Part shown: in pieces, positions 13,175 to 30,646 of the stretch
How positions within the stretch are numbered: position 1 is the first letter of the stretch
Layout of the letters: each line of letters opens with the position of its first letter
Origin: Burkholderiales bacterium
Lineage (GTDB): Bacteria; Pseudomonadota; Gammaproteobacteria; Burkholderiales; SG8-39
NCBI GenBank assembly: GCA_035286595.1
Contig: DATEDA010000096.1
Coordinates: forward strand, 1 to 61,332
Direction: 5' to 3'
Length of the DNA: 61,332 nt
Notes under the pieces: generated by a model
What the model was told of the DNA's origin: nothing
Database searches by the model: none
The model's input: the letters and a program-made list of their open reading frames with translations, nothing else
Translations under genes and position numbers: made by a program

Positions 13175-13272
13175 GCATTTGAGCCGTGCCACGCCGCCCG
13201 TCCGGCCGGCCATCATCGCATCCGCGCCCGCGGCGCAGTAGCCGACCACCTCATCCTGCGCACCGTGGTGGC

Positions 13273-16200: not shown

Positions 16201-19200
16201 GTCTGGTGGATGGGGAGCGACGCCTGGCCGGTGGCGGCGCCGTTCATCATCGCCTGGGTCGCGTCGCCCGCCATTGCCCGATGGACGAGCCTCTCGCCGC
16301 TCGTCGCTGGCCGCGTGGCGGTTTCGGCTGCGGACGCCGATGCCCTGCGCCTGGTTGCGCGCCGCACCTGGCGCTTCTTCGAGACCTTCGTGACGTCGAC
16401 GGATCACATGCTCCCGCCGGACAACTTCCAGGAAGACCCGAAGCCGATCGTCGCGCACCGGACCTCGCCCACCAATCTCGGCGTCTACCTCCTCTCCGCG
16501 GTCAGCGCCCGCGACTTCGGCTGGGTGGGGACGATCGAGACCGTCGACCGGCTGGAAGCGACGCTCGCGACGATGGGCGGCTTGCAGCGGTTCCGCGGGC
16601 ACTTCTACAACTGGTACGACACGCGGGATCTCCGACCGCTCGATCCGCAGTACGTCTCGTCGGTGGACAGCGGCAACCTGGCCGGGCATCTGATCGCGCT
16701 TGCGAATGCCTGCCGGGAATGGATCGGCCGTCCGGCGGCCGGCCCTGAAGTGCTTGCCGGCATCGAAGACGCCCTCCAACTGACGCGCGAATCCTTGGGG
16801 GGGCTTCCCGACGACCGGCGGACGCAGACGATCACGCGGCACCAGCTCGACGATGCGCTCGATGCGCTGGCGGCCGCGCTCCGCCGGGCGCCGATGCCGC
16901 CGGCGGACATCGGTGCGCGACTGGCGGAGGCCGCGCCGCACGCCGCGACGATGGCCGACATTGCGCGCACGCTCGCGAGCGAACGCGGCGACGAAGCCGG
17001 CACCGAGATGCTGTTCTGGGCCGAGGCGACGCTCGCGTCGATCGAGAGTCACCGTCGGGACGTTGCCCCGGCCGTCGACGCCGCCCGCGTCCTGGAACGG
17101 CGCCTTGCGGCGCTGGAGGCTGCGGCGCGGACGATGGCCGGCGCGATGGACTTCGGCTTTCTCCTCGACCCGGACCGCAGACTCCTCGCAATCGGTTACC
17201 GGGTCGCGGACGGCACGCTCGACCCGAGCTGCTACGATCTCCTCGCATCCGAAGCGCGCCTGGCGAGCTTCGTGGCGATCGCCAAGGGCGACGTCCCTTC
17301 GCGGCACTGGTTCCGGCTCGGGCGCGCCGTCACCCCGACCGGACGCGGCGCGGCACTGATCTCCTGGTCGGGATCGATGTTCGAGTACCTGATGCCGTCG
17401 CTCGTGATGCGCGCACCGGCCGGCAGCCTGCTCGAGGAGACGAGCCGCCTCGTCGTCCGCCGGCAGGTGAGCTATGGCGCCACGCTCGACGTGCCCTGGG
17501 GGATTTCCGAGTCCGCCTATAACGTCCGCGACCTGGAGCACACCTACCAGTATTCGAACTTCGGCGTCCCGGGACTGGGTCTGAAACGCGGTCTCGGCGA
17601 GAACGCCGTCGTCGCACCCTATGCGACGGCGCTCGCGGCCATGGTCGATCCGGGAGCGGCGGCGCGAAACTTCGCCCGGCTTGCCACCGCCGGCGCGCGC
17701 GGCCGCTACGGCTTCTACGAGGCCCTCGACTACACGCCCACGCGGCTGCCGGAGGGGAAGGACGTTGCGATCGTCCGCGCCTTCATGGCGCACCATCAGG
17801 GCATGACCGTGGTCGCGATCGCCAATGCTCTCCTGGACGGCGCGATGCGGGCGCGGTTCCATGCCGAGCCGATCGTGCAGGCGACGGAGCTGCTGCTGCA
17901 GGAGCGCACGCCGCGCGACGTCGCGGTGGCTCATCCCAGGGCGGAGGAAGTCGCCACCGCGGCGACGGTCCGCGAGCTGGAGCTCCCGGCGGTGCGACGG
18001 CTCCGCTCCCCGCACGACGCCACGCCGCAAGTGCACCTGCTCTCGAACGGCCGGTATGCGGTAATGCTGACGGGCGCCGGGTCCGGGTACAGCCGCTGTG
18101 GCGATCTCGGAATCACGCGCTGGCGCGAAGACGCCACCCGCGACGACTGGGGCGCCTACGTTTTCCTGCGCGACGTGCAGAGCGGCGACGTGTGGTCTGC
18201 GGGCTACCAGCCGACCGGCGTCGAGCCGGACCGCTATGACGTCACGTTCACCGAGGATCGCGCCGAGTTCGTCCGCCACGACGGACCGATCACCACGCTG
18301 CTCGAGGTCCTCGTCTCGCCGGAGGACAACGCCGAGGTTCGCCGCGTCTCCGTGGCGAATGCGGGGAGCCGGACCCGGGACATCGAGCTCACCTCGTACG
18401 CCGAGCTCGTGCTGGCGCCGCCCGCCGCCGACACGGCGCACCCGGCCTTCTCCAAGCTCTTCGTGCAAACGGAATATCTCCACAAACAGGGCGCGGTCCT
18501 CGCGACGCGACGGCGCCGATCGCCCGGCGAGCCCGAGGTCTGGGTGGCGCATCTCGCCGTCGTCGAAGGGGAGGCGGTGGGCGAGCCGGAGATCGAAACC
18601 GACCGGGCCCGGTTCCTCGGCCGCGGGCGCGAGTCCCGAGCGCCGATCGCGGTGATGGACGGCCGGCCGCTTTCGAATACCGTCGGCACGGTCCTGGATC
18701 CCGTTTTCGCGCTGCGCCGCCGCGTGCGGGTACCGCCGGGCAGGGCGGCGCGCATCGCGTTCTGGACGGTCGTCGCTTCGTCCCGTGGCGAGGCCCTGGA
18801 CCTGATCGACAAGCATCAGGACACGACCGCCTTCGACCGCGCGGCCACGTTGGCGTGGACCCAGGCGCAAGTGCAGTTGAGCTACCTCGGCATCGACGCG
18901 GAGCAGGCGGCCCTCTTTCAGCGTCTCGCCGGCTACGTGCTCTACGCCGATCCCACGCTCCGTCCGTCGTCGGACGCCATCCGCCGCGGCGGCGGCGGGC
19001 CGCCGGCGCTCTGGGCGCAGGGCATCTCCGGCGACCTCCCGATCGTCCTCGTGCGGATCGACGACATCGAGGACGTCGCCATCGTCCGCCAGTTGCTGCG
19101 GGCCCACGAGTACTGGCGGCTGAAGCAGCTCGCCGTCGATCTCGTGATCCTGAACGAGCGGGGATCGTCCTATATCCAGGATCTCCAGATCGCCCTGGAG

Positions 19201-21867
19201 ACGCAGGTCCGGACGAGCCAGTCCCGACTGCAGATCGGCGCGGACCTCGCGCGCGGCTCGGCGTTCGTCCTGCGTGCGGACCTCATTCCGGCGGCGACCC
19301 GCGCCCTGCTGCTCGCAACGGCCCGGGCGGTGCTGGTCGGACGACGGGGAACGCTCGCGGAACAGCTCGTCCGGGTACAGGAAGCGGACACCGTGGCGCC
19401 GCCCGCGCAGCGCTTGCCGTCCGCGGGCGCATCGCCTGACGTTCCGGTGGCGCCGGACCTCGAGTTCTTCAACGGGCTCGGCGGATTCGCCGCGGACGGG
19501 CGGGAGTACGTGACGATCCTCGGCGCCGGGCGGTCGATCCCCGCGCCGTGGATCAACGTCATCGCCAATCCCGCGTTCGGCTTCCAGGTCGCGGTCGAGG
19601 GCGGCGGCTACACCTGGTCGGGCGCGAGCCGCGAGAACCAGCTCACGCCCTGGTCGAACGATGCAGTCACCGACCGGCCGGGCGAGGTCCTCTATCTGCG
19701 CGACGAGGACACCGGCGAGCTGTGGGGACCGACGGCCCTGCCGATCCGCGACGAGGCCGCGCCCTACGTCGCCAGGCACGGCCAGGGATACAGCCGATTC
19801 GAGCACGCCGCACACGGTATCGCGCTCGATCTCCTCCAGTACGTGCCGCTCGACGAGCCGATCAAGATCTCGCGGCTGACGATCCGGAACACCTCGGGGC
19901 GAACCCGGCGGCTTGCGGTCACGGCCTACGTCGAGTGGGTGCTCGGCCCGTCCCGCGGCGCCTCCGCGCTCTCGGTCGTGACGGAAATCGATGCGGAGAC
20001 CGGCGCGATGTTCGCGCGCAACCCCTGGAACATCACGTTCGGTTCCCACGTCGCCTTCGCGGACCTGGGGGGACGGCAGATCGCCTGGACCGGCGACCGG
20101 CGGGAATTCCTGGGGCGGAACGGCACGCTCGACAATCCCGCCGCGCTCGCCGGGGAGACGCCCCTCTCGCGGCGGGTCGGTGCCGGCCTCGATCCCTGCG
20201 GCGCCCTTCAGGCGCCGGTCGAGCTCAAGCCGGGCGCCACGGTGGAGCTCGTCTTCCTCCTCGGCGAGGCGGCAACCGCGGCCGACGCGCAATCCCTGAT
20301 TGCTCGCTACCGGGTCGCCGATCTCGATGCGGTCCTGCGCGAAGTCGTCGCGCATTGGGACGATGTGCTCGGCACGGTGCAGGTCAAGACGCCGGACCGC
20401 TCGATGGACCTCATGCTGAACCGCTGGCTCCTCTATCAGACGCTCGCCTGTCGCGTGTGGGCGCGCTCGGCGTTCTACCAGGCGAGCGGCGCTTACGGCT
20501 TCCGCGACCAGCTCCAGGACGGAATGGCGCTCGCCCTGTCGCGACCGGCGCTGACGCGTGCGCATCTCCTGCGTGCCGCGGCCCGGCAGTTCGTCGAAGG
20601 AGATGTCCAGCACTGGTGGCTGACGCCGTCCGGCCAGGGCGTGCGGACACGCATCTCCGACGATCGGATATGGCTCGCGTACGCCGCCGCACACTATGTC
20701 GAGACGACCGGCGACATCGCGGTGCTGGACGAGCCCGTGCCGTTTCTCGAGGGTCAGCAGCTCGGGCCGGACGAGCACGACGCCTACTTCCAGCCCATGC
20801 TCGCGGAAGAGAGCGCACCGCTCTTCGAGCACTGCGCGCGCGGGCTCGACCGGAGTCTCGCGGTCGGGGAGCACGGCTTGCCGCTGATCGGCACTGGCGA
20901 CTGGAACGACGGCATGAACCGGGTCGGCGAGCTGGGCAAGGGGGAGAGCGTCTGGCTCGGCTGGTTCCTGCATGCGACGCTGGCGGCGTTCGCGCCGTTG
21001 GCGAAGGCTCGCGGCGAAGCGGCGCGGGCCGCGAAGTGGCGGTCGCACGCCGCTCGGCTCCGCGTCTCGCTCGAGCAGGACGGCTGGGACGGTGATTGGT
21101 ACCGGCGCGGCTACTTCGACGACGGAACGCCGCTCGGTTCGTCCACGAGCGACGAATGCCGGATCGATTCGATCGCGCAATCCTGGAGCGTGATCTCCGG
21201 GGCGGCGGAGCCGGCGCGTGCCGCGCGTGCCATGGCCGCCGTGGACGAGCAGCTCGTCCGTCGCAGTGACGGTCTCGCCCTGCTCTTCACCCCGCCCTTC
21301 GATCGGACGTCGCTCGATCCCGGATACATCAAGGGCTATCCGCCCGGCATCCGGGAAAACGGGGGCCAATACACCCACGCCGTCGCTTGGTCGGCGATCG
21401 CCGTCGCCGCCCTCGGCGACGGCGACAAGTCCGCCGAGCTGTTCTCGCTCATGAACCCGATCAACCGCACGAGCACGCGGGCGGACGTGCAGCGCTACAA
21501 GGTCGAGCCCTACGTCGTCGCCGCGGACGTCTATTCGGTCGCGCCGCACGTCGGGCGCGGCGGATGGACCTGGTACACGGGCTCGGCCGGGTGGCTCTAC
21601 CGGGTCGGGATCGAGTCGATCCTCGGGTTGCGCCTGGAGGGAGCGATCCTCTGCGTCGCGCCCTGCATCCCCAGGGCGTGGCCGCGCTTCGAGATCGTGT
21701 TCAAGTATCGCTCGGCGCGGTACGAGATCGCGATCGAGAACCCCAACGGAGTCTGCCGTGGAGTGGCTCACGCCGAGCTGGACGGCAGTGCGCTGCCGGC
21801 GGGCCCGACGCGAGTGCCGCTCGTGGATGATGGTCGAGTCCACAAGGTGCGCGTGATCCTCGGGTGA
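13273..21867 (+). CDS. cgs: Cyclic beta-1,2-glucan synthase (Cgs/NdvB-type; GT84, glucanase/transglycosylase-like middle domain, C-terminal GH94 phosphorylase)
   Basis: About 2860 aa. TLDADT, SHDLFEG and RQHRWARGDWQ GT motifs; TM blocks; YDLLASEAR and SWSGSMFEYLMP middle domain; two GH94 beta-sandwich repeats; DWNDG and GIRENGGQYTH. Start uncertain (GTG 13273 or TTG 13300). Confidence 0.92.
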   Translation: MKIRGRKARLRSVILRAFGRASQAAPWDNEESIREELFSIERLEQHAESLAAAQPVTAGPASGRSLAVRLKENESILLDAYRAIARAVGEGRAITPAAEWLLDNYHLVEEQIREIRDDLPPGYYRQLPKLADGPFAGYPRVFGVAWAFVAHTDSRFDPEMLRRFVRAYQRVQPLTIGELWAVAITLRIVLVENLRRGARRIVAGRAAREEADALADRLLGVDAPPAESIAPSLQHYEEAPLPAAFAVQLVQRLRDQDPKVTPALLWLEERLAAQGKTADAIVHDEHQRQGATNVTVRNVITSMRLISDVDWSGLVEDVSLIDDTLRPGSDFARMDFPTRNLYRSAIETLARGSRLSELEIAREALAAANDPALQQPEEGDDPDRRKRDPGYHLIAGGRGAFEATIGFRAPLRTWPGRFSAMIGIRGYIGGVMTVAAIVVAAPLAALADAGTSAWWLGVLAALGLIPSIDAAMAVVNRAVTRGFGATILPGLELRDGVPPSLRTVVAVPILLTTPAALEEQIERLEIHHLASPEGELHFALLSDWTDAATETVEGDDALLAAAAAGIARLNRRYGPAAGGDRFLLFHRRRVWNEGQHRWMGWERKRGKLHELNRLLRGATDTTFVGVGERLPAPPAGVRYVITLDADTRMPRETARRLVGKMAHALNRPRFDAVTRRVVEGYGVLQPRVTPSLPVGREGSLFQRISSSMSGIDPYSAAVSDVYQDLFGEGSYTGKGIYDVDAFEAALDARVPESALLSHDLFEGTFARAGLASDIEVVEEFPSRYDVAAGRQHRWARGDWQLLPWILGRGGASPDDRSTGALPLIGRWKMLDNLRRSLSAPASLVALVAGWTLPLQAAVVWTGFILSTIALSTLLPVLAGIVPRRARVTTRSHLRALGADVRLALSQTALLAVFLAHQAWLMLDAIGRTLYRLFVSHRHLLDWVTAAQAQVGPRLDLAGFYRQMSGGVALGIVAAAVVWWMGSDAWPVAAPFIIAWVASPAIARWTSLSPLVAGRVAVSAADADALRLVARRTWRFFETFVTSTDHMLPPDNFQEDPKPIVAHRTSPTNLGVYLLSAVSARDFGWVGTIETVDRLEATLATMGGLQRFRGHFYNWYDTRDLRPLDPQYVSSVDSGNLAGHLIALANACREWIGRPAAGPEVLAGIEDALQLTRESLGGLPDDRRTQTITRHQLDDALDALAAALRRAPMPPADIGARLAEAAPHAATMADIARTLASERGDEAGTEMLFWAEATLASIESHRRDVAPAVDAARVLERRLAALEAAARTMAGAMDFGFLLDPDRRLLAIGYRVADGTLDPSCYDLLASEARLASFVAIAKGDVPSRHWFRLGRAVTPTGRGAALISWSGSMFEYLMPSLVMRAPAGSLLEETSRLVVRRQVSYGATLDVPWGISESAYNVRDLEHTYQYSNFGVPGLGLKRGLGENAVVAPYATALAAMVDPGAAARNFARLATAGARGRYGFYEALDYTPTRLPEGKDVAIVRAFMAHHQGMTVVAIANALLDGAMRARFHAEPIVQATELLLQERTPRDVAVAHPRAEEVATAATVRELELPAVRRLRSPHDATPQVHLLSNGRYAVMLTGAGSGYSRCGDLGITRWREDATRDDWGAYVFLRDVQSGDVWSAGYQPTGVEPDRYDVTFTEDRAEFVRHDGPITTLLEVLVSPEDNAEVRRVSVANAGSRTRDIELTSYAELVLAPPAADTAHPAFSKLFVQTEYLHKQGAVLATRRRRSPGEPEVWVAHLAVVEGEAVGEPEIETDRARFLGRGRESRAPIAVMDGRPLSNTVGTVLDPVFALRRRVRVPPGRAARIAFWTVVASSRGEALDLIDKHQDTTAFDRAATLAWTQAQVQLSYLGIDAEQAALFQRLAGYVLYADPTLRPSSDAIRRGGGGPPALWAQGISGDLPIVLVRIDDIEDVAIVRQLLRAHEYWRLKQLAVDLVILNERGSSYIQDLQIALETQVRTSQSRLQIGADLARGSAFVLRADLIPAATRALLLATARAVLVGRRGTLAEQLVRVQEADTVAPPAQRLPSAGASPDVPVAPDLEFFNGLGGFAADGREYVTILGAGRSIPAPWINVIANPAFGFQVAVEGGGYTWSGASRENQLTPWSNDAVTDRPGEVLYLRDEDTGELWGPTALPIRDEAAPYVARHGQGYSRFEHAAHGIALDLLQYVPLDEPIKISRLTIRNTSGRTRRLAVTAYVEWVLGPSRGASALSVVTEIDAETGAMFARNPWNITFGSHVAFADLGGRQIAWTGDRREFLGRNGTLDNPAALAGETPLSRRVGAGLDPCGALQAPVELKPGATVELVFLLGEAATAADAQSLIARYRVADLDAVLREVVAHWDDVLGTVQVKTPDRSMDLMLNRWLLYQTLACRVWARSAFYQASGAYGFRDQLQDGMALALSRPALTRAHLLRAAARQFVEGDVQHWWLTPSGQGVRTRISDDRIWLAYAAAHYVETTGDIAVLDEPVPFLEGQQLGPDEHDAYFQPMLAEESAPLFEHCARGLDRSLAVGEHGLPLIGTGDWNDGMNRVGELGKGESVWLGWFLHATLAAFAPLAKARGEAARAAKWRSHAARLRVSLEQDGWDGDWYRRGYFDDGTPLGSSTSDECRIDSIAQSWSVISGAAEPARAARAMAAVDEQLVRRSDGLALLFTPPFDRTSLDPGYIKGYPPGIRENGGQYTHAVAWSAIAVAALGDGDKSAELFSLMNPINRTSTRADVQRYKVEPYVVAADVYSVAPHVGRGGWTWYTGSAGWLYRVGIESILGLRLEGAILCVAPCIPRAWPRFEIVFKYRSARYEIAIENPNGVCRGVAHAELDGSALPAGPTRVPLVDDGRVHKVRVILG

Positions 21868-21902: not shown

Positions 21903-22661
21903 CTATCCGCTGGCGCGCTCGATCGCAGCGTCCTGCGTGAGGGTCAGGAGCACGTCGGCGTACCAGGCGCAATTCAGGTCGAGCCGTTCGTCCTGCTCGA
22001 CGTCGCGGCTGGTGACGTCCATCCGGCCGGCGTGGACGCCGAGCAGCTTCCACGGCAGCTCCACCCGACCGGCGCGTTGGGTCGGTTCGCGCGCGACGAC
22101 CGGTGCGCCGCTCGTGCCGCGGTGCATCCGCGCGTCCGTCAGGAAGTAGCCGTTGCCCTGGAACCGGATCCCGAACGCCGAGGCGATGACCGCCTGCCGC
22201 GCGACCGGCAGGCGATGCAGCGTGTCGTGAAAGCCGAGCGGAAAACCGGCGATGAGCACCGAAGTTCCCACTTCGATCTGGTCGAGCTGCTTCACCAGGT
22301 GAGCGGGCGTGAACGCGTGATAGAGAAGCGTCTCCGGCAGGGCCGGGCGCTCGAGCTCCAGGGCCACGACGTCGATCGCGCCTGTCGAGTCGCGCCCCTC
22401 CCGCCAGACCGACTTCCGGTCCCGGTATAGCGGAATGGAGAACTGCCTCGTCATGGCCACGTTCTCCGGCGCCACGTGCAGCTCGATCTCCAGCCGGTCC
22501 GGGTGATGATCGCTCGCCTCGTCCAACACCACGTGTCGGCTCGTCACGAGGAACAGCCGGTCATCCCGCGCGAAGAAGAAGCCGGTCGCGTTGGTCAGGT
22601 GCTGCTGCCCGAGCATCGTCGTGACGCGAGTCACGGCCAGCAGCAGCGATTCGATCTTCAC
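21903..22661 (-). CDS. Trypsin-like serine peptidase, no signal peptide
   Basis: LVTSRHV (His), IDVVAL (Asp) and GTSGAPV (Ser) triad motifs. Confidence 0.88.
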   Translation of the reverse strand: MKIESLLLAVTRVTTMLGQQHLTNATGFFFARDDRLFLVTSRHVVLDEASDHHPDRLEIELHVAPENVAMTRQFSIPLYRDRKSVWREGRDSTGAIDVVALELERPALPETLLYHAFTPAHLVKQLDQIEVGTSVLIAGFPLGFHDTLHRLPVARQAVIASAFGIRFQGNGYFLTDARMHRGTSGAPVVAREPTQRAGRVELPWKLLGVHAGRMDVTSRDVEQDERLDLNCAWYADVLLTLTQDAAIERASG

Positions 22662-23287
22662 GCGAGCCTCCGCCAGACGCTCGCCAGCCAGGGCTGCCGT
22701 TCACGCGGCAAGCCGGCAGGGCGGTAATAGTGGGTAAGTTCGAGGAATCCCGCGGCCGAGACGTAGCGGCGCCAGGTTTCGAGATCGTGGTACGCGCCGT
22801 AGCGTCCGCGGTTCCAGCCTTCCTCGTTGTGACCGTGCGGGTTCGAGCTGAACAGCACCCCGCCCGGCTTCAGCGTGGCGTGCAATTCCAGCAGCACGCG
22901 CGGCAACTCCTGGCTGGGGACGTGAAACAGCGCGGCGTTGGCGAAGACGCCGTCGAACCGCTCATCCGGCAGGTCGAGCTTGAGGAAGTCCTGCTGCCAT
23001 ACCTCGCAGCCGCTGTCGGCACGCGCCATCTCGGCGAAGCGGGCGGCGCCCTCCAGGCCCACCGCGATGTGACCGAGGCCGGCAAGCACCTTGAGATCGC
23101 GCCCTGGCCCGCAACCGAGGTCGAGTATGGTGAAGGGTGGTTCGCCTTCGATATGTTGCAGCAGCGCTGCGATGTTCTGGCTGACGTCATGATCCTGTGT
23201 GCCTTGCCGGAAATCCTCGGCACGCTGGTTGTAATGCTCGAGCGTCAGGCCGGCGAGCTCGTCCAGATCTCGCGGACTCAGCTTCAT
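22658..23287 (-). CDS. Class I SAM-dependent methyltransferase
   Basis: ILDLGCGPGRD motif I; FDGVFANAALFHV; 4-bp overlap with the peptidase start. Confidence 0.92.
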   Translation of the reverse strand: MKLSPRDLDELAGLTLEHYNQRAEDFRQGTQDHDVSQNIAALLQHIEGEPPFTILDLGCGPGRDLKVLAGLGHIAVGLEGAARFAEMARADSGCEVWQQDFLKLDLPDERFDGVFANAALFHVPSQELPRVLLELHATLKPGGVLFSSNPHGHNEEGWNRGRYGAYHDLETWRRYVSAAGFLELTHYYRPAGLPRERQPWLASVWRRLA

Positions 23288-23381
23288 GTCGGATCCGTCG
23301 CCACGCGGTCGTTCCGGTGGGCCCGCTTCTGGCTGCCGTCCCAGCGCACGACGAGGGCTTTCATGGCAACGATGATACGTC

Positions 23382-23397
23382 CGTGCGCTGGCGTACG
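23382..23397. promoter_or_regulatory. CRP-like box 1
   Basis: CGTGCG-CTGG-CGTACG within the longer palindrome GTC...GAC (23379-23400). It covers the -35 position of a TAGACT -10 (23406-23411) facing the Crp gene. Confidence 0.65.
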
Positions 23398-23441
23398 GAC
23401 GGCGTTAGACTGTCTCTGCCGGTATCGAACATCGAGTGGGT

Positions 23442-24170
23442 ATGCGAGCAACGGCTGCGCCGCAAATTCCCGAGACGAACCAGCTCCTGGCAGTCCTGCC
23501 GGCGGGCGAACGCGAACGGCTGTGTCCCCACCTCGAGCCGGTCGCGATGGCGCTCGGCGAGGTTGTCTACGAATCCGGCAGCCGGCAGGACTACGTGTAC
23601 TTCCCGACGACGGCGATCGTGTCCCTGCTCTACGTCATGGCGGATGGCGCGTCCGCCGAGATCGCCGTGGTCGGCAACGAGGGAATGGTGGGAGTTGCCC
23701 TCTTCATGGGAGGTGAGACCACACCGAGCCGCGCCATCGTACAGAGCGCCGGCTCGGCGTTCCGGCTTTCGGGGCAGCTGCTGAAGCGCGAGTTCATTCG
23801 TGCCGGGCCGACGCAGCATCTGTTGCTGCGCTATACCCAGGCGTTACTGACGCAGATGGCGCAGACGGCGGTCTGCAACCGGCATCATTCGGTCGACCAG
23901 CAGCTCTGCCGCTGGCTGCTGCTCAGCCTCGATCGGTTGCCCTCGAACAGGCTCACCATGACGCAGGAGTTGATTGCCAACATGCTCGGGGTGCGCCGCG
24001 AAGGGGTCACGGAGGCCGCCGGGAAGTTGCAGGGCGCAGGCCTCATCCGCTACAGCCGTGGCCGCATCACGGTGCTGGATCGGCCGGGCCTGGAGGCCCG
24101 GGCCTGCGAGTGCTACGAGGTGGTCAAGCGGGAATGCGATCGCCTGCTCCCCACTGCCATGGCGACGTGA
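23442..24170 (+). CDS. Crp/Fnr-family regulator, paralog 1
   Basis: Cyclic-nucleotide-binding-like fold plus HTH: TQELIANMLGVRREGVTEAAGKL. Confidence 0.93.
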   Translation: MRATAAPQIPETNQLLAVLPAGERERLCPHLEPVAMALGEVVYESGSRQDYVYFPTTAIVSLLYVMADGASAEIAVVGNEGMVGVALFMGGETTPSRAIVQSAGSAFRLSGQLLKREFIRAGPTQHLLLRYTQALLTQMAQTAVCNRHHSVDQQLCRWLLLSLDRLPSNRLTMTQELIANMLGVRREGVTEAAGKLQGAGLIRYSRGRITVLDRPGLEARACECYEVVKRECDRLLPTAMAT

Positions 24171-24196
24171 TCTGAAGCGAGCACGTCACTGCCGCT

Positions 24197-24904
24197 CTAG
24201 CCGAGGATGCGGTCGTACACGTTCTGCGCGGATCGGTAACACCCGCAGGCGGCGGCCTCCAGGCCGCGCCGGGCGAGAACCGTGATGTTGCCGCGGCGGT
24301 AGCGAATCAGCTTTCGCCGCTGCAGCCCCCCCGCCGCCTTGGTCACGCCGACCCGGCGGACGCCGAGCATTTGGGCGAGCAGCTCGTGGGTCAGATGGAA
24401 CTCGTCCGCGTGCGCCCGGTCGTGGGTCATCAGCAGCCAGCGGGCGAGCCGTGCCTCCAGTAGGTGGAAGTGCGTACACGCCGCTGTTTGCGCGAGCTGC
24501 GCCATCGAGACGTAGAGGTAGCGGTTCAGCTCGCGCTGCAGGGCAGCGCTATCGGCGAGCTCGCGGAGGAACGGCGCAGCATCCATCCGCATCGCGGCGC
24601 CCGCGCCCTGGACCAATGCGCGCAAGGGTGAGACGTCGACGCCCAGCATCAGCGTGATTCCGAGCATGCCCTCGCTGCCGACGAGCCCCACCTCCAGGCT
24701 CGCGCAGCCGTCGCGCGGCGTCAACAGCGAGATGAAACCGTCGTCGGGGAAGTAGACGTGCCGGATCCGGTCCCCGGGCTCGGAGAGCACATCGGCGAAA
24801 GCGAGCTCGACCCGCTCGCAGCCCGCGAGCAGATGCTCGCGATCCTTGCGGGGCAACGCCGCGATCAGATTGTTCGTGGCGGGGACGCGCCTCGTGGATG
24901 ACAC
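24197..24904 (-). CDS. Crp/Fnr-family regulator, paralog 2
   Basis: [26 protein letters not shown]; AGGAG RBS before the GTG start. Confidence 0.93.
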
Positions 24905-24924
24905 CGGAGTCTCCTAGAGGGTCC

Positions 24925-24959
24925 AAGAAAAGACCCGGTACGGGGGTGCCGTGACCGGG
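24925..24959 (-). terminator. Intrinsic terminator directly upstream of Crp paralog 2
   Basis: CCCGGT-C-ACGG/CACCC/CCGT-ACCGGG stem followed by TCTTTTCTT. Confidence 0.7.
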
Positions 24960-25000
24960 CCAAACACTTTAGGTGTTCATCAGGGAGGAGCTAAACACCC
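24925..25000 (-). ncRNA. Candidate ~76-nt sRNA or attenuator leader with an anti-SD loop
   Basis: Hairpin 1 GGTGTTTAG-CTCCTCC-CT(GAT)GAACACC at 24999-24972; hairpin 2 with a C-rich loop and U-tract; -10-like GATGAT at 25012-25007; CRP-like box centred at -41.5. Confidence 0.55.
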
Positions 25001-25033
25001 GTTAGCATCATCCCCGCTTCCTCCAGGACGCTC

Positions 25034-25049
25034 CGTACGCTAGCGTCCA
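25034..25049. promoter_or_regulatory. CRP-like box 2
   Basis: CGTACG-CTAG-CGTCCA; GATGAT begins 29.5 bp from the dyad centre on the minus strand. Confidence 0.6.
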
Positions 25050-25218
25050 TAGCGCACACGATTCTTTCGCATGGGCCGGACGAGTGTAGCCAAGGAAAGG
25101 CCCGGAACGGGGAGAGCCGATTCCGGGCCGGGGACAACAGGTGCTCAAGGACAACAGATACTCACGAGGGAGGGAATGAGCACCCATTTCAATGATGTCC
25201 GTCTCCGCCAGGGCCGTC

Positions 25219-25234
25219 TGTTCGCTAGCGCACC
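25219..25234. promoter_or_regulatory. CRP-like box 3
   Basis: TGTTCG-CTAG-CGCACC; TACCCT (25256-25261) begins 29.5 bp downstream, facing the GlsB-family gene. Confidence 0.65.
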
Positions 25235-25341
25235 GATCCCGGTCCGACATCGGATTACCCTCCAACCGACGCCGTGAGCGATGCGGCGATGTTGCAGTCG
25301 GTAGCACTACCGGGCTTTTGACCTGGAAAGGAAGAGACGCT

Positions 25342-25587
25342 ATGGAAATTCTCTGGTTCATTCTGATCGGTCTCGCCGCCGGATGGCTGGCGGGGCAATT
25401 CATGCGAGGCGGCGGCTACGGTCCTGTCGGCGACATCTTGCTGGGCGTGGTCGGCGCGGTGGTCGGCGGGTTTCTGTTTCGTCAGCTGGGCCTGTCCGCC
25501 GGAGGCGGGTTGATCGGTGCCTTGATCGTGGCGACCATAGGCGCGGTGGTCGTGCTGTTCCTCGTGCGCGTGCTCAAGCGCGCCTAG
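25342..25587 (+). CDS. GlsB/YeaQ/YmgE family (transglycosylase-associated) stress membrane protein
   Basis: MEILWFILIGLAAGWLAG...GDILLGVVGAVVGG...IVATIGAVVVLF. Confidence 0.92.
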   Translation: MEILWFILIGLAAGWLAGQFMRGGGYGPVGDILLGVVGAVVGGFLFRQLGLSAGGGLIGALIVATIGAVVVLFLVRVLKRA

Positions 25588-25631
25588 CGGTGAGAAGGGA
25601 GGGGTTCCACCCCTTCCCTCGCGCCGATTCA

Positions 25632-25662
25632 CGACGATCTTCCGCGTCGCGGAAGATCGTCG
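25632..25662. terminator. 14-bp perfect inverted repeat between convergent genes
   Basis: CGACGATCTTCCGC-gtc-GCGGAAGATCGTCG. Confidence 0.7.
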
Positions 25663-25666
25663 CTCA

Positions 25667-25801
25667 TCAGGTTTTCCCGCCGGGCACGTCAGCGGGCGTC
25701 TTGAACGGCCCGCCGCGAAATGGCGCGGCCGGAGGGGCCGGCTTCTTCTGTTGCTTCGGTTTCTTGGCTTCGCGATTGCTTCGCTGCTGGCCCTTGGGCA
25801 T
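25667..25801 (-). CDS. Small basic protein (44 aa), absent from the ORF track
   Basis: AGGAG RBS; MPKGQQRSNREAKKPKQQKKPAPPAAPFRGGPFKTPADVPGGKT; stop abuts the hairpin. Confidence 0.7.
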   Translation of the reverse strand: MPKGQQRSNREAKKPKQQKKPAPPAAPFRGGPFKTPADVPGGKT

Positions 25802-25938
25802 GGGAGTTCTCCTGAGAGGATGCGCATCCGGACGTGGCCCGGCGATTATGCGCGTTTGTGACCGGCGTCGCCGTCAACGGGTCTCGTCGCGATGGGGCCG
25901 CAGCCCTGGCGCTCCGTGCGCCGCGATCTTTCGATGTA

Positions 25939-25954
25939 TGTACGCCAACGTACA
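25939..25954. promoter_or_regulatory. CRP-like box 4 (perfect dyad)
   Basis: TGTACG-CCAA-CGTACA; GATACT (25976-25981) begins 29.5 bp downstream. Confidence 0.75.
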
Positions 25955-26076
25955 GAGCGCGCCCGGAGGCGCGCCGATACTGCTCACGGCGATGGTCGAA
26001 TCTCGGGCGCCCGCAGCTGTTTTCGCCGGGCGGCACCGAGAGCGGGTCAGCCCCGGGCCTTCGCGAGGAGAGAGTC

Positions 26077-26628
26077 ATGTGGAGGCGAGCAGGTTCGATG
26101 ACCGTGAGTGCGGCGGTGGCCGCGATGGTGCTTGGCTGTTCCCCGCCGCCGTCGGGGCCGACAGTCGTGATTGAGGACAAGGTCTATACGGTGACGCCCA
26201 CCTCGGTGCTGGCGAAGGCCGGGATCATGACGGGCGAGGTCACGGAGATGAAGGTGACCGAGCGGGTCGAGAAGGACTCCGGCAACGTCGTCTCCATGGC
26301 GAAGCTCACCGGGAAGCTCAAGCTGACCAATAGCTCCAAGGATCAAAGCGTCCGCCTGGTCGGCGGCAAGATCCAGTTCATCGATGCCCAGGGGCAACCG
26401 ATCAAGGTCGAGGAGAAGCGGATCGAACCGACCCTCAAGTTCTCCAGCTACGGCGGAGCCGAGCGGCTGGACCCGGGGCAGGAGGCGACCCAGATGGTGG
26501 ACGTGGACTTCCCCGCCGAGGCCCTGAAGGCGAAGAAGCTGAAGGAGATCCGCCTCGAGCTCGTGTACCTCCCCTCGTCGTACAAGGAAGAGACGGCCAA
26601 CTTCACCGTGTCGATCGGCGGCCAGTAG
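26077..26628 (+). CDS. Lipoprotein of unknown function, beta-rich (Ig-like?)
   Basis: GAGGAG RBS; signal peptide with VLGC lipobox; host-like codon usage. Confidence 0.8.
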   Translation: MWRRAGSMTVSAAVAAMVLGCSPPPSGPTVVIEDKVYTVTPTSVLAKAGIMTGEVTEMKVTERVEKDSGNVVSMAKLTGKLKLTNSSKDQSVRLVGGKIQFIDAQGQPIKVEEKRIEPTLKFSSYGGAERLDPGQEATQMVDVDFPAEALKAKKLKEIRLELVYLPSSYKEETANFTVSIGGQ

Positions 26629-26642
26629 ATCTCGAGTTCGAC

Positions 26643-27185
26643 TCAGTCCCGCGGCGTCGGCGGCGCGCCGCGGCCATCCGGATACCGCACAGCCAGCGCG
26701 CTCGCGCGGGCTTCCGCGTCATCCAGGCCATGGAGGGTGACGGCGCTCGTGCCGCCCTCGACGAGCCGCAGCCGACGCAGATCTTTCACCAACACCCACG
26801 TCTCCCCGCGGCCCGGGGCTTCCATGCTCACTGCCGTGTTCGCTAGGACGGCGGTCGCCTCGATCAGGCTTCGGCGGGCGGCGGTGACATCTCCCACGGC
26901 GTAGCTGTGCCTCGCTCGCTGCAGGGCACGAACACCGAAAGCGGACCGGTGGACAGCATCTTTGCCCAGGCCCGGGCCGCTATCGTCCTGGGGCAGAACC
27001 TTGGCCTGAGGGGGGAGGGCTCGAGCATCGACCGGCACCAGGTAGACCCCGCGCTCGGCAACCGGGGTCGCGAGTGCCGCCGTAGTCGGGCGTTCCACTG
27101 GTGAAGGCGGCGGCTGCAGCGCGCAAGCGGCGACGAGGAAAGACAGGAAACCGGTCGCCGCAAGCTTGAGGGAAGTGAGTCTCAA
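26643..27185 (-). CDS. Probable lipoprotein of unknown function
   Basis: TTG start 6 nt after GGAGGAG; LVAAC lipobox; Pro-rich linker followed by a helical domain. Confidence 0.55.
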   Translation of the reverse strand: MRLTSLKLAATGFLSFLVAACALQPPPSPVERPTTAALATPVAERGVYLVPVDARALPPQAKVLPQDDSGPGLGKDAVHRSAFGVRALQRARHSYAVGDVTAARRSLIEATAVLANTAVSMEAPGRGETWVLVKDLRRLRLVEGGTSAVTLHGLDDAEARASALAVRYPDGRGAPPTPRD

Positions 27186-27230
27186 ATGGATCTCCTCCCC
27201 ATTCATTATCCGCGCCCCATCACGAAGATC

Positions 27231-27246
27231 TGTACGCCAGCGTACG
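27231..27246. promoter_or_regulatory. CRP-like box 5
   Basis: TGTACG-CCAG-CGTACG; GATAAT (27210-27205, minus strand) begins 28.5 bp from the centre. Confidence 0.72.
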
Positions 27247-27375
27247 TACGGACCTGCGACGAGCGCGGCGACATCACGACCGCGCCGGCTTGGAAGCAGC
27301 GTCTTGCGGGTGCTACCGGGGCGCGAAGGAAACCCACTACTCCCCCGGAGAACCTCGGGCGGGAGCTCACTGCAG

Positions 27376-27408
27376 CCCGTTCATGCCGCGGCGAGCGACA
27401 TGAACGGG
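27376..27408 (-). terminator. Hairpin downstream of cspA
   Basis: CCCGTTCATG...CATGAACGGG stem, extendable to 14 bp with one G.U pair on the minus strand; no clear U-tract. Confidence 0.55.
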
Positions 27409-27426
27409 GAATCGACCAGAGCTTTC

Positions 27427-27633
27427 TCAGGCCGCTTTGAGGTTGACGGCGGACGACTTGCCGTCGTTTCCCTGCTCGACGTCGTACGAGAGTTTCTGGC
27501 TCTCGCTGATGCTGCCGAGCCCGGCACGTTCCACGGCCGAGATGTGGACGAACACATCCTTCGAGCCGTCGTCAGGGCGAATGAAGCCGAAGCCTTTGGT
27601 TGCGTTGAAGAACTTGACGGTGCCAGTAGACAT
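27427..27633 (-). CDS. cspA: Cold-shock protein
   Basis: [12 protein letters not shown] (RNP1) and DVFVHISAV (RNP2); 68 aa; GGAGG RBS. Confidence 0.97.
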
Positions 27634-27837
27634 GAGTCCTCCGGATCTGGCGTTGCCTCGCGCGGGAGTGTGCGGGGCATCAAATTGCCGTTGGGAGAAG
27701 ACCCGAAGTGGCGCCCGAAGGTGATACTGCGGACAGACCCGAAGCGAATTCGATGACGCTATATGGGGGCGAAAACGCGCTTGGCAAGCGAGCAGCGACC
27801 GCTTTCTTGCTGCCCCGTAACACGCCAGGTGCCGCCG

Positions 27838-28077
27838 CTACGCCGAGACCCCGGCGTCGTCCTGCGGCAGGTCGGCTTGCACGAGAGCGATTTTCTCCTG
27901 CGCGTCATGGATGATGCGCCGGCTCGCTCGGTCCCAGTGCAGGGAGACCGCCCTATCCGAGGCGGATCGAGCGAGTGCGGCGCTGGGCGATCCCGCCATG
28001 GCGAGCGTCAACGGTGTTCTCATGCTTCTCATGATTGATGCCGCCTGACGGAACGCCCCGAATCGGAGCAATCTCAT
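27838..28077 (-). CDS. Possible small hypothetical protein
   Basis: Open frame filling the gap between Crp paralog 3 and cspA; no motif; start uncertain. Confidence 0.25.
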   Translation of the reverse strand: MRLLRFGAFRQAASIMRSMRTPLTLAMAGSPSAALARSASDRAVSLHWDRASRRIIHDAQEKIALVQADLPQDDAGVSA

Positions 28078-28133
28078 CTTACGCGCTCAATCAGCGGCGT
28101 CCTGGGGTTTATTTTTCGGCGAAGCCGGGACAA

Positions 28134-28856
28134 TCATGCTGCGGCCACGTCGGGGAGCAGCCGGTCGAATTCTCTCTTGACGACCTGGTAGCACTCGCAA
28201 ACGTGGGCCTCCAGCGCCGGCCGGTCGAGCACCGTGATGTTGCCGCGGCGGTAGCGAATCACGCCGGCGGCTTGCAGCTTGCCTGCGGCCTCGGTGACGC
28301 CTTCGCGGCGCACTCCCAGCATGTTGGCGATCAGCTCCTGCGTCATCGTGAGCTCGTTCGAGGGCAGGCGATCGAGGCTCAGCAACAGCCAGCGACAGAG
28401 CTGTTGATCCAGCGAGTGATGCCGGTTGCAGACCGCCGTCTGCGCCATCTGTGTCAGCAGCGCCTGGGTATAGCGCAGCAGCAGATGCTGCATCGCCCCG
28501 GCGCGACGGAATTCCTCCTTCAGCAGGAGCCCCGACAGCCGATAGGCAAAGCCGGCGCTCTGCACGACGGCCCGGCTCGGCGTAGTCTCGCCGCCCATGA
28601 AGAGGGCGACGCCGACCATTCCCTCGGTGCCCACCACGGCGATCTCGGCTGACGCGCCATCCGCCATGACGTAGAGCAGGGACACGATGGTGGAGGTCGC
28701 CGGGAAGTAGACGTGATCCAGCTGGCTGCCCGACTCGTAAAGGACGTCGCCGAGAGGCATCTGGGTCAGTTCCAACTGGGGGTACACGCGTTCGCGCTCG
28801 ATCCCCGGCAAGACCGCAAGAAGGCGGTTTTCTGCGGGGTTATGGACGTTGGGCAT
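28134..28856 (-). CDS. Crp/Fnr-family regulator, paralog 3
   Basis: Very similar to paralog 1; shares VCNRHHS and MTQELIANMLGVRREGVTEAAGKLQ. Confidence 0.93.
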   Translation of the reverse strand: MPNVHNPAENRLLAVLPGIERERVYPQLELTQMPLGDVLYESGSQLDHVYFPATSTIVSLLYVMADGASAEIAVVGTEGMVGVALFMGGETTPSRAVVQSAGFAYRLSGLLLKEEFRRAGAMQHLLLRYTQALLTQMAQTAVCNRHHSLDQQLCRWLLLSLDRLPSNELTMTQELIANMLGVRREGVTEAAGKLQAAGVIRYRRGNITVLDRPALEAHVCECYQVVKREFDRLLPDVAAA

Positions 28857-28926
28857 GACCTAGGGCTCGACGGTCAGAGGCGGATCAGCCATCTCCCACC
28901 AGTATAGGTCGATTCCCCTCGCGCTA

Positions 28927-28942
28927 TGTGCGCTGGCGTACC
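28927..28942. promoter_or_regulatory. CRP-like box 6, central to divergent promoters
   Basis: TGTGCG-CTGG-CGTACC; TATACT on the minus strand (28906-28901, 28.5 bp) and TACACT on the plus strand (28964-28969, 29.5 bp). Confidence 0.78.
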
Positions 28943-29072
28943 GAGGGCCGGCGGCTTCGGAACTACACTCGTACGACGGGACGAGTCGACGACCCGGCCT
29001 GCGCGCAAGCGATCAGGGAGGTGCCGACGCCAGCCCTCCCGCGCGGCGTCAACTCACTCCGGTGCCAAGACA

Positions 29073-29687
29073 ATGGATTGGACTAGAGACAGGATCGAGC
29101 GGCTGACCACTCCGGAGGTCAGACAGCTGCGCGCCAACGCCGAAGCGCTCGGCAAGGTAGCCGTCCTCGCGTCGTGCGATGAAGTGCTGTCTCGGCGGCC
29201 GAAGCGGGCTGTCGGGCGTCGCGTCGCGCGCACGCGGTCAGCCGACGATACGCACTTGGTTTCGCGACGCAAGGCGCTCGAGACCCAAGGGGTGATCCTT
29301 CGCAACCCGAGCTGGAGCTGGGGCGGCGTCCGGCGTTCTGACGGCGCGGTGATCATGACGATGTGGGCCGATGACGTCCAGACCTCCGACGGCACCTGCA
29401 GCTACCTTCTCTGGGCCCCGAATGTAAATGGCTCGCGTCCCTGGTCGGACAAACCGGGCGGCAAGGAGCGGCTCGAGCATTGCCGCCTCGCTTTGGCGCA
29501 GGGCACGGCGGAGGGCTTGCTCGTCTATGGTGACCGCCTCCAGGGCAGATTACCGGAGGACAAGGCCTCCACGGTGCGGGGAGCGGACCCGACCACTGTT
29601 CTGCGCTTTCGCGTGATCCGGCGCGGCGAGGAATTCTGGGCGGCGTGGGGGGAAAGAAGCCCGCCGCTCGTTGCCGATCGCGTATAG
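29073..29687 (+). CDS. Hypothetical protein (204 aa)
   Basis: Globular-looking sequence from MDWTRDRIERL; contains RNPSWSWGGVRRSDGAVIMTMW. Confidence 0.75.
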   Translation: MDWTRDRIERLTTPEVRQLRANAEALGKVAVLASCDEVLSRRPKRAVGRRVARTRSADDTHLVSRRKALETQGVILRNPSWSWGGVRRSDGAVIMTMWADDVQTSDGTCSYLLWAPNVNGSRPWSDKPGGKERLEHCRLALAQGTAEGLLVYGDRLQGRLPEDKASTVRGADPTTVLRFRVIRRGEEFWAAWGERSPPLVADRV

Positions 29688-30325: not shown

Positions 30326-30385
30326 TCGACTGGAGAGCGCCGGAACGCACTTCGGCGCCAACAGCTTTCCAACCGGGAGATCGTG

Positions 30386-30646
30386 ATGTCAATCGAAACG
30401 TGGATCATCGTCGGCCTCGTGGCGGGCTTCCTCGCCAGCAAGGTCATCATCAGGTCGGGCGAGGGGCTGCTCAGGGATCTCGGTCTCGGCATCGGCGGCG
30501 CGGTCCTTGCCGGCTTGCTCTTCCGTGCGCTGACGTCGCCGGAAGCGACCGGGCTCGATGTGTTCGGCCTCATCGTGACCCTGGTCGGCGCGAGCGCGGT
30601 ACTCGTCGTGTATCACACCTTCTTCCCGCACGTTCGCCAAGGCTAG
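30386..30646 (+). CDS. GlsB/YeaQ/YmgE family protein, second paralog
   Basis: WIIVGLVAGFLASK...RDLGLGIGGAVLAG...IVTLVGASAVL. Confidence 0.88.
   Translation: MSIETWIIVGLVAGFLASKVIIRSGEGLLRDLGLGIGGAVLAGLLFRALTSPEATGLDVFGLIVTLVGASAVLVVYHTFFPHVRQG

Follow-up and report, generated by a model that had tools for sequence, protein, structure and literature searches.

The 61,332-nucleotide contig DATEDA010000096.1 of a Burkholderiales bacterium (assembly GCA_035286595.1, 4.11 Mb in 257 contigs, 69.8% G+C), referred to here as the window, contains a compact 5.6-kb gene island in which three genes for Crp/Fnr-type regulators lie among six copies of a CRP-like palindrome. The question raised by this locus is which protein reads these boxes, and what its binding would do to the promoters beside them. 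Our comparisons indicate that the six palindromes are very probably the operators of the island's own Crp/Fnr-subfamily regulators, which would use five of them to activate and one to repress.

A palindrome confined to one gene island

The original prediction had described six 16-mers of the form YGTDCG-N4-CGYACV, all intergenic, at 23382, 25034, 25219, 25939, 27231, and 28927. All six were re-located at these positions, and each lies between definable genes. Five match the consensus, and box 2 (CGTACG-CTAG-CGTCCA) is one base off, so that a search with the degenerate IUPAC (International Union of Pure and Applied Chemistry) string finds 5 of the 6 boxes. The same search returns two matches in coding DNA, at 20678 and 46307; with less than 12 bits each in a matrix scan, both look like chance occurrences. 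The palindrome is longer than was first described: it spans 20 bp, T-n-Y-G-T-R-C-G-C-Y-R-G-C-G-Y-A-C-R-n-A, with the outer T two bases before the 16-mer and the outer A two bases after it present in all six boxes. The boxes, which carry no strand, and the −10-like hexamers beside them are as follows:

23380–23399, Box 1, TCCGTGCGCTGGCGTACGGA, between the divergent −10 hexamers TAGACT (23406–23411, plus strand) and TATCAT (23377–23372, minus strand)
25032–25051, Box 2, TCCGTACGCTAGCGTCCATA, with −10 GATGAT (25012–25007, minus strand) 29.5 bp from the dyad; predicted target small RNA B
25217–25236, Box 3, TCTGTTCGCTAGCGCACCGA, bidirectional, with TACCCT (25256–25261, plus strand) toward glsB and CATCAT (25197–25192, minus strand) toward small RNA A, both 29.5 bp from the dyad
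25937–25956, Box 4, TATGTACGCCAACGTACAGA, with −10 GATACT (25976–25981, plus strand) 29.5 bp from the dyad; predicted target the lipoprotein gene 26077–26628
27229–27248, Box 5, TCTGTACGCCAGCGTACGTA, with −10 GATAAT (27210–27205, minus strand) 28.5 bp from the dyad; predicted target the lipoprotein gene 27185–26643
28925–28944, Box 6, TATGTGCGCTGGCGTACCGA, bidirectional, with TATACT (28906–28901, minus strand) toward paralogue 3 and TACACT (28964–28969, plus strand) toward the 29073 gene

A chance origin of these boxes is excluded. A degenerate pattern gives 12 strand-hits against 1.09 expected, and GTRCGCYRGCGYAC occurs three times in the 4.11-Mb genome, each time inside the island. When the genome was scanned with a matrix trained only on boxes of other genomes, the six boxes scored 22.6 to 29.5 bits, compared with 16.4 for the next site in the genome and 17.6 for the best site in a shuffled genome. 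A dispersed, genome-wide regulon was considered and rejected, as outside the island no site exceeds the shuffled level, whether the matrix is derived from the window or from foreign boxes. Because the motif is unique to the island, the candidate regulon in this organism is the island itself.

Boxes and regulator genes occur together in other genomes

The candidate binders are encoded by three genes of the island, and the genome has no further member of their subfamily:

23442–24170, plus strand, Crp/Fnr paralogue 1, with recognition helix GVRREGVTEAAGK, a C-x3-H motif in the hinge helix, and the tail C-E-C-Y
24197–24904, minus strand, Crp/Fnr paralogue 2, 45–46% identical to paralogues 1 and 3
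28134–28856, minus strand, Crp/Fnr paralogue 3, about 81% identical to paralogue 1

Paralogues 1 and 3 form an inverted DNA duplication. A search with all three proteins yielded 80 loci with orthologues 71% to 99% identical; their sources are Beta- and Gammaproteobacteria as well as genome bins that carry the labels Spirochaetota and Terriglobales. One of these loci (L005, from a Betaproteobacteria genome bin) represents a sister genome in which paralogue 1 is 99% identical. With the sister genome left out there are 79 foreign loci, totalling 864 kb, in which boxes were counted at a cut-off of 17 bits. The enrichment near orthologues that the original prediction proposed to look for is present: the foreign loci contain 128 boxes, compared with none found by a complement-control matrix, at least one box occurs in 52 of the 79, and in 29 a box lies within 300 bp upstream of the regulator gene. 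In the whole genomes of 30 relatives, strict boxes are clustered in islands, and in the 15 relatives with the subfamily a gene of that subfamily is found no more than 10 kb away from 33 of 52 strict boxes, where 0.7 would be expected (p ~ 1e-48).

Paralogue-2-type genes, which are 38–48% identical to paralogue 3, lie directly beside a gene of the paralogue-1/3 type in 14 of 16 cases among the relatives (G001–G025). By this gene order, the paralogue-2 type and the paralogue-1/3 type are a conserved pair.

Promoter geometry

At class II promoters the activator site is centred at about −41.5, where it overlaps the −35 element, and the −10 hexamer lies about 29.5 bp from the dyad. The hexamers named in the original prediction (GATGAT, TACCCT, GATACT, GATAAT, TATACT, and TACACT) all lie 28.5 to 29.5 bp from the dyads of their boxes, and a seventh that had been missed, CATCAT on the minus side of box 3, brings the number of sides of boxes 2 to 6 with this geometry to seven. 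The arrangement is borne out in other genomes, where, of the 276 sides of 138 boxes (all 80 loci), 52 have a TANNNT that starts precisely 29.5 bp from the dyad, compared with about 2 at other offsets. In 49 unidirectional promoters oriented by their −10 hexamer, G-A-C at +8.5 to +10.5 is enriched on the proximal side relative to its distal mirror (p = 2e-8 and 2e-5). This GAC is the core of a −35 hexamer at 17-bp spacing, so that the boxes overlap the weak −35 of real sigma-70-type promoters; the −35 elements match at 3 of 6 positions, and the −10 hexamers usually match TATAAT at 3 to 5 of 6. In glsB promoters from six genomes, the box and TAnnnT are almost the only invariant parts. The same 49 oriented promoters (L001–L080) also show an asymmetry, in that the distal half-site prefers GTG (33 of 49) and the proximal half-site GTA (23 of 49; p ~ 0.01), which could come from promoter constraints or from an oriented heterodimer.

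Box 1 is placed differently. Its hexamers are TAGACT, 16.5 bp from the dyad toward paralogue 1 on the plus strand, and TATCAT, 12.5 bp from the dyad toward a divergent methyltransferase operon on the minus strand. It had been said to overlie the −35 of the paralogue-1 promoter, and it does cover that −35 together with the spacer; it also adjoins the −10 of the divergent operon, and for both reasons a dimer bound here should repress. The position would thus be of the repressor type. The box with TAGACT at 16.5 bp is kept at paralogue-1 promoters in L001, L002, L003, and L005, and the divergent methyltransferase operon is absent from the related loci aligned at this promoter. Other genomes show a minor second peak of −10 hexamers 15.5 to 16.5 bp from the dyad.

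For boxes 2 to 6 we infer activation from the position of the site. The alternative that survives best is that the regulators do bind the boxes but mainly repress or anti-activate everywhere, the −10 hexamers at 29.5 bp belonging to regulator-independent promoters whose repression is relieved by a signal. Box 1 and the 15.5- to 16.5-bp peak demonstrate that repressor-type positions exist in the family, and the partial −35 (GAC) in the proximal flank could work alone. We nevertheless regard repression throughout as unlikely, given that the canonical class II activator position is held within a base pair on 52 sides and that matches of 3 of 6 in the −35 and 3 to 5 of 6 in the −10 are typical of activator-dependent promoters.

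Covariation of the recognition helix and the operator

The recognition helix reads R-R-E-G-V-T-E in paralogues 1 and 3 and R-R-V-G-V-T-K in paralogue 2, which thus has Val where the other two have Glu, at the residue aligned with CRP Glu181. That residue of CRP contacts the G:C pair (G:C7) at the corresponding base of TGTGA. Using a box pattern blind to position 4, we counted the base at that position in loci with different helices. Where the regulator has Glu (G-V-R-R-E-G), 58 of 110 half-sites carry G there, compared with 5 of 82 in the 15 loci whose regulators have Ser, Pro, or Ala, where A (54) and C (19) predominate (p = 1e-12); removal of identical boxes from the latter leaves A 45, C 16, G 5, and T 4. 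These 15 loci come from Burkholderia, Paraburkholderia, Cupriavidus, Caballeronia, Pandoraea, Bordetella, Ralstonia, and Rhodanobacter. Since CRP Glu181 contacts G:C at the equivalent base, the residue and the base that vary together are the two partners of a predicted contact. Together with the co-occurrence and linkage described above, this covariation supports, by comparison, the original proposal that the local Crp paralogues would be the binders.

An assignment of Val-type paralogue 2 to GTA or GTT half-sites and of Glu-type regulators to GTG half-sites was also considered. Homotypic half-site pairs show no excess, and position 4 is composed alike whether or not a locus has a Val-type gene, which leaves the assignment unsupported though not refuted, the test being a weak one because a Val-type gene may lie beyond the fetched DNA.

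The covariation bears directly on a second alternative, that the boxes serve a different DNA-binding protein, one that travels in the same islands, while the Crp paralogues bind elsewhere. The islands do carry sensor kinases as well and, in some genomes, MarR- or XRE-type genes. It is nonetheless the Crp subfamily gene alone that is consistently found beside the boxes, both in bacteria as far apart as Betaproteobacteria and Spirochaetota and on plasmids; the TGT-N10-ACA register fits the Crp family; and position 4 co-varies with the Crp recognition helix. We consider another binder highly improbable. Least credible of all is that the boxes arose by duplication of a promoter cassette or repeat element and have no regulator of their own. 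The minus-strand units of boxes 2 and 3 (box, −10, and RNA) are indeed tandem duplicates and paralogues 1 and 3 an inverted duplication, but box flanks are unrelated outside that one duplication, almost only the box and −10 are invariant across genomes while the rest diverges, and covariation with a regulator residue is not expected of a repeat element.

Tandem small RNAs behind boxes 2 and 3

The original prediction had proposed a single box-driven small RNA. The copy behind box 2 stands, and a second one behind box 3 had been missed:

24922–25000, minus strand, small RNA B, predicted start 25000, terminator hairpin ending in UCUUUUCUU
25072–25185, minus strand, small RNA A, tandem paralogue of small RNA B, with the minus side of box 3 as its predicted promoter

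Both RNAs fold into a first hairpin with a CCUCCCU loop followed by a terminator hairpin, and small RNA A is the longer because of an insertion in the first hairpin. Homologues were found only in the window's bacterial family (loci L002, L003, and L005; genomes G001, G004, G005, G070, and G122), and wherever the DNA upstream of a homologue was recovered it contains a box followed, at unchanged spacing, by GATGAT, GATCAT, or GATGCT. The loop sequence does not vary among them, and compensatory changes are seen at three stem pairs. Rfam gives no gathering-level match in the window; the best at this locus is to anti-hemB at 24925–25002 (17.4 bits against a threshold of 49.5, E = 1.7). The possibility that an anti-Shine-Dalgarno sequence is a general trait of box-driven transcripts was rejected, CCTCC being found on 9% of transcribed sides and on 9% of non-promoter sides.

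Paralogue 2 has no box promoter of its own in the window. Its ribosome-binding site follows the terminator of small RNA B by about 20 nt (24905–24925), as it does in G004, and in the sister genome a 270-bp insert at this place (3715–4000 of L005) carries its own box and −10. The arrangement suggests that expression of paralogue 2 in the window probably depends on read-through of the small RNA B terminator.

A proposed circuit

The predicted targets other than the regulators and small RNAs are:

25342–25587, plus strand, glsB/yeaQ-type small membrane stress protein (Pfam Transgly_assoc)
26077–26628, plus strand, lipoprotein with lipobox VLGC and without a Pfam family
26643–27185, minus strand, lipoprotein with lipobox VAAC, a TTG start after GGAGGAG, and without a Pfam family
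29073–29687, plus strand, 204-amino-acid protein of no known family, predicted target of the plus side of box 6

In the circuit that we propose, paralogues 1 and 3, and possibly paralogue 2, would bind the boxes. At boxes 2 to 6 a dimer would sit about 41.5 bp upstream of seven starts, over a weak −35 (caGAC), and bring in RNA polymerase in the manner of CRP and FNR, thereby activating paralogue 3, glsB, the two lipoprotein genes, the 29073 gene, and the two tandem small RNAs with their anti-Shine-Dalgarno loop. Paralogue 2 would be reached through read-through of the small RNA B terminator, and a dimer at box 1 would repress the paralogue-1 promoter. The result would be a self-contained circuit with positive feedback via paralogue 3 and negative feedback via paralogue 1. 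From sequence we infer that the regulators bind, where transcription starts, whether control is positive or negative, and how the three paralogues share the work.

The original prediction had read the locus as a new regulon with these targets and this feedback. Comparison supports that reading, with the amendments that the regulon is confined to the island, that box 3 is bidirectional, and that the direction of control is deduced from position. Several observations weigh against the circuit or limit it. Among the foreign loci, 27 of 79 have no box at 17 bits or more, in part because regulators of the Ser/Pro/Ala type use a variant operator, which leaves many Burkholderiaceae loci unmatched by the window-derived matrix. 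The Ser/Pro/Ala loci are mostly Burkholderiaceae, so that the covariation counts are phylogenetically non-independent, although several genera agree. In the window itself, position 4 is A in 8 of 12 half-sites despite the Glu-type helices of paralogues 1 and 3, which makes the pairing of Glu with G a tendency and not a code. The composition of position 4 is the same in loci with and without a Val-type paralogue, and paralogue-to-box assignments are not separable on this basis. Finally, several of the −10 hexamers (TACCCT, CATCAT, and GATGAT) are weak.

A large, unnamed branch of the Crp/Fnr superfamily

All three paralogues match the helix-turn-helix family PF13545 (HTH_Crp_2) at 53–59 bits against a cut-off of 27. 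For the N-terminal family PF00027, paralogue 1 passes (32.8 bits against 27.5), paralogue 3 reaches 26.3, and paralogue 2 has no match. An AlphaFold2 model of paralogue 3 (mean predicted local distance difference test score, pLDDT, 94.4) has the Crp/FNR fold with an extra C-terminal helix beginning at C-x-C-Y, and a Foldseek search with this model gave template modelling (TM) scores of 0.73–0.75 to Mycobacterium tuberculosis CRP, GlxR, and FNR, at no more than 20% identity to any solved structure in the model comparison. With the C-terminal winged helix-turn-helix domain, the N-terminal beta-roll, the long dimerisation helix, and the overall fold present, the paralogues belong to the Crp/Fnr superfamily.

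Within the superfamily, sequence tests set the proteins apart from FNR and NtcA, and they are probably not CRP proper either: none of the NCBIfam CRP models matches them, and they share 14–20% identity with CRP structures. The first 60 residues contain no N-terminal Cys cluster of the FNR type, which ligates a [4Fe-4S] centre, only the non-conserved Cys27 of paralogue 1 and Cys26 of paralogue 2. Identity with NtcA was rejected at 16–19 bits in TIGR03697 against a cut-off of 244.95.

The branch to which they belong comprises 4,049 representatives at 50% identity with E values of 1e-30 or better, and a word-index search returned at least 8,000 candidates, all significant. Sources that name its members use only a generic Crp/Fnr or CRP-like label. 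Members as distant as 49% identity all retain His147, Cys220, and Tyr223, and nearly all of them Cys143 and Cys222 too. This conservation suggests, as a hypothesis only, that Cys143, His147, Cys220, and Cys222 may form a metal or redox site at the hinge.

Genes of the island and of related islands

In other genomes, 70 open reading frames (ORFs) downstream of sides with a box and −10 were compared with Pfam, the ORF calls in these foreign loci being heuristic. The largest group was that of Crp paralogues themselves (18), followed by 5 GlsB/YeaQ proteins, 4 CsbD proteins, and 4 histidine kinases, then 3 each of GGDEF/PAS proteins, DUF3096 proteins, and fatty-acid desaturases, 2 of DUF3309, and one each of cyclopropane-fatty-acid synthase, BON, DUF1328, and cold-shock protein. 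The subfamily occurs on plasmids or islands of Pseudomonas, Burkholderia, and Ralstonia, and the regulator is found among such genes on mobile DNA in pKLC102 of P. aeruginosa, a B. multivorans plasmid, and pRsT78 of R. solanacearum. On pKLC102 and the B. multivorans plasmid it adjoins a giant GH94 glucan-synthase-like gene, as in the window.

The remaining genes considered in and around the island of the window are:

13186–21867, plus strand, giant GH94/glucoamylase-type protein of 2,893 amino acids, cyclic glucan synthase-like
21903–22661, minus strand, trypsin-like peptidase, in a divergent operon with the next two genes
22658–23287, minus strand, S-adenosylmethionine (SAM) methyltransferase of the divergent operon
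23364–23284, minus strand, 26-codon ORF MKALVVRWDGSQKRAHRNDRVATDPT of the divergent operon, its stop overlapping the methyltransferase start (ATGA)
21903–23364, minus strand, the complete operon divergent from paralogue 1, with −10 TATCAT 12.5 bp from the box 1 dyad
25801–25667, minus strand, small, very basic ORF of 44 amino acids, beginning MPKGQQRSNREAKKPKQQKK
27427–27633, minus strand, cold-shock protein, without a box

Matrix scans of the genome found no box upstream of the giant GH94 gene. At the 26-codon ORF, the TATCAT −10 lies only 7 nt before the ATG, and the transcript may be leaderless. The 44-amino-acid basic ORF is kept in G004, where it abuts a terminator like that of small RNA A (L087, ~1650–1720). 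The cold-shock gene and its long leader (27373–27806, minus strand) give a weak match to the Rfam cspA thermoregulator (23.5 bits against a gathering threshold of 78, E = 0.005). A second Transgly_assoc (GlsB/YeaQ) paralogue lies just beyond the box cluster at 30383–30646 on the plus strand, without a box upstream.

Relation to known systems

The nearest well-studied parallel is Escherichia coli CRP at class II promoters such as galP1. The proteins share the fold (TM 0.6–0.75) and Arg-Glu at the R180/E181 positions, the operators share the TGT-N10-ACA register, the site centre lies about 41.5 bp from the predicted start, and the relation between Glu and G at the fourth base mirrors that of Glu181 and G:C7. 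The island regulators differ from CRP in having no more than 20% identity, Glu in place of CRP R185, a weak or absent match to the cyclic-nucleotide-binding domain, and an extra C-terminal helix with the conserved C-x-C-Y. Their inner half-site is R-C-G-C where CRP has G-A-N-N, and their regulon is local and island-confined, with two to five paralogues per island. A precedent for boxes 3 and 6, which have a −10 at 28.5 to 29.5 bp on both sides with predicted starts, is the divergent E. coli malX-malI promoter pair, which shares one CRP site at −41.5 from both starts, although the regulator and operator are different here.

NtcA of cyanobacteria binds GTA-N8-TAC at −41.5 with a TAN3T −10, and has Val at the position where paralogue 2 has Val. 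Boxes 4 and 5 fit this motif, the promoter layout is the same, and NtcA is the weak best NCBIfam match of the island proteins. Here, however, the host is not cyanobacterial, the C-G-C-Y-R-G-C-G core is conserved as it is not in NtcA sites, and the gene content relates to stress and the envelope, not to nitrogen. FNR and ANR, which use an iron-sulfur sensor and act at class II promoters through TTGAT-N4-ATCAA, belong to the same family and promoter class, and the conserved cysteines of the island proteins may likewise be a sensor; the operator differs, the N-terminal Cys cluster is absent, and Arg is kept at the CRP-R180 position. In gene content (YeaQ/GlsB, CsbD, BON/OsmY-like, DUF1328, cfa, and cold-shock genes) the islands resemble sigma-factor-driven general stress regulons, those of RpoS and, in Alphaproteobacteria, of PhyR-EcfG, whereas here an activator and operator, and no alternative sigma factor, are predicted to work at sigma-70-type promoters and the module is small, clustered, and mobile. 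Identity with the low-oxygen lxa motif of B. cenocepacia was rejected, since that motif, TGA-N6-TCA, differs from the box (PMC3721108). Full-text literature searches with motif and gene-content terms found no published account of this operator, this regulon, or this gene set under a Crp-type regulator.

What emerges is a well-supported predicted operator and local regulon for a very large, unnamed Crp/Fnr branch. The mechanism would be the classical class II one known from CRP, FNR, and NtcA, so what is gained concerns annotation and physiology and is no new principle. A broader interpretation, which we offer tentatively and as more doubtful than the circuit itself, is that the locus is a portable stress module that needs no alternative sigma factor. 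The branch, with its ~4,000 clusters, would sense redox state or metal through the Cys3-His site of the hinge and switch on its own envelope and membrane stress island along with a translation-tuning anti-Shine-Dalgarno small RNA, the Glu- and Val-type pair serving as activator and modulator. As regulator and operators travel together, such a module could remain functional when carried into another phylum or on a plasmid such as pKLC102.

The analysis supplies a testable operator, a predicted target set, a circuit layout, and a specificity rule (Glu with G at position 4). The predicted targets include small stress proteins of unknown function (GlsB/YeaQ, CsbD, DUF3096, and DUF3309) in addition to a desaturase and a small RNA. 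Taken together, the four could help to reveal what thousands of unannotated regulators, and several protein families without a known role, do in the cell.

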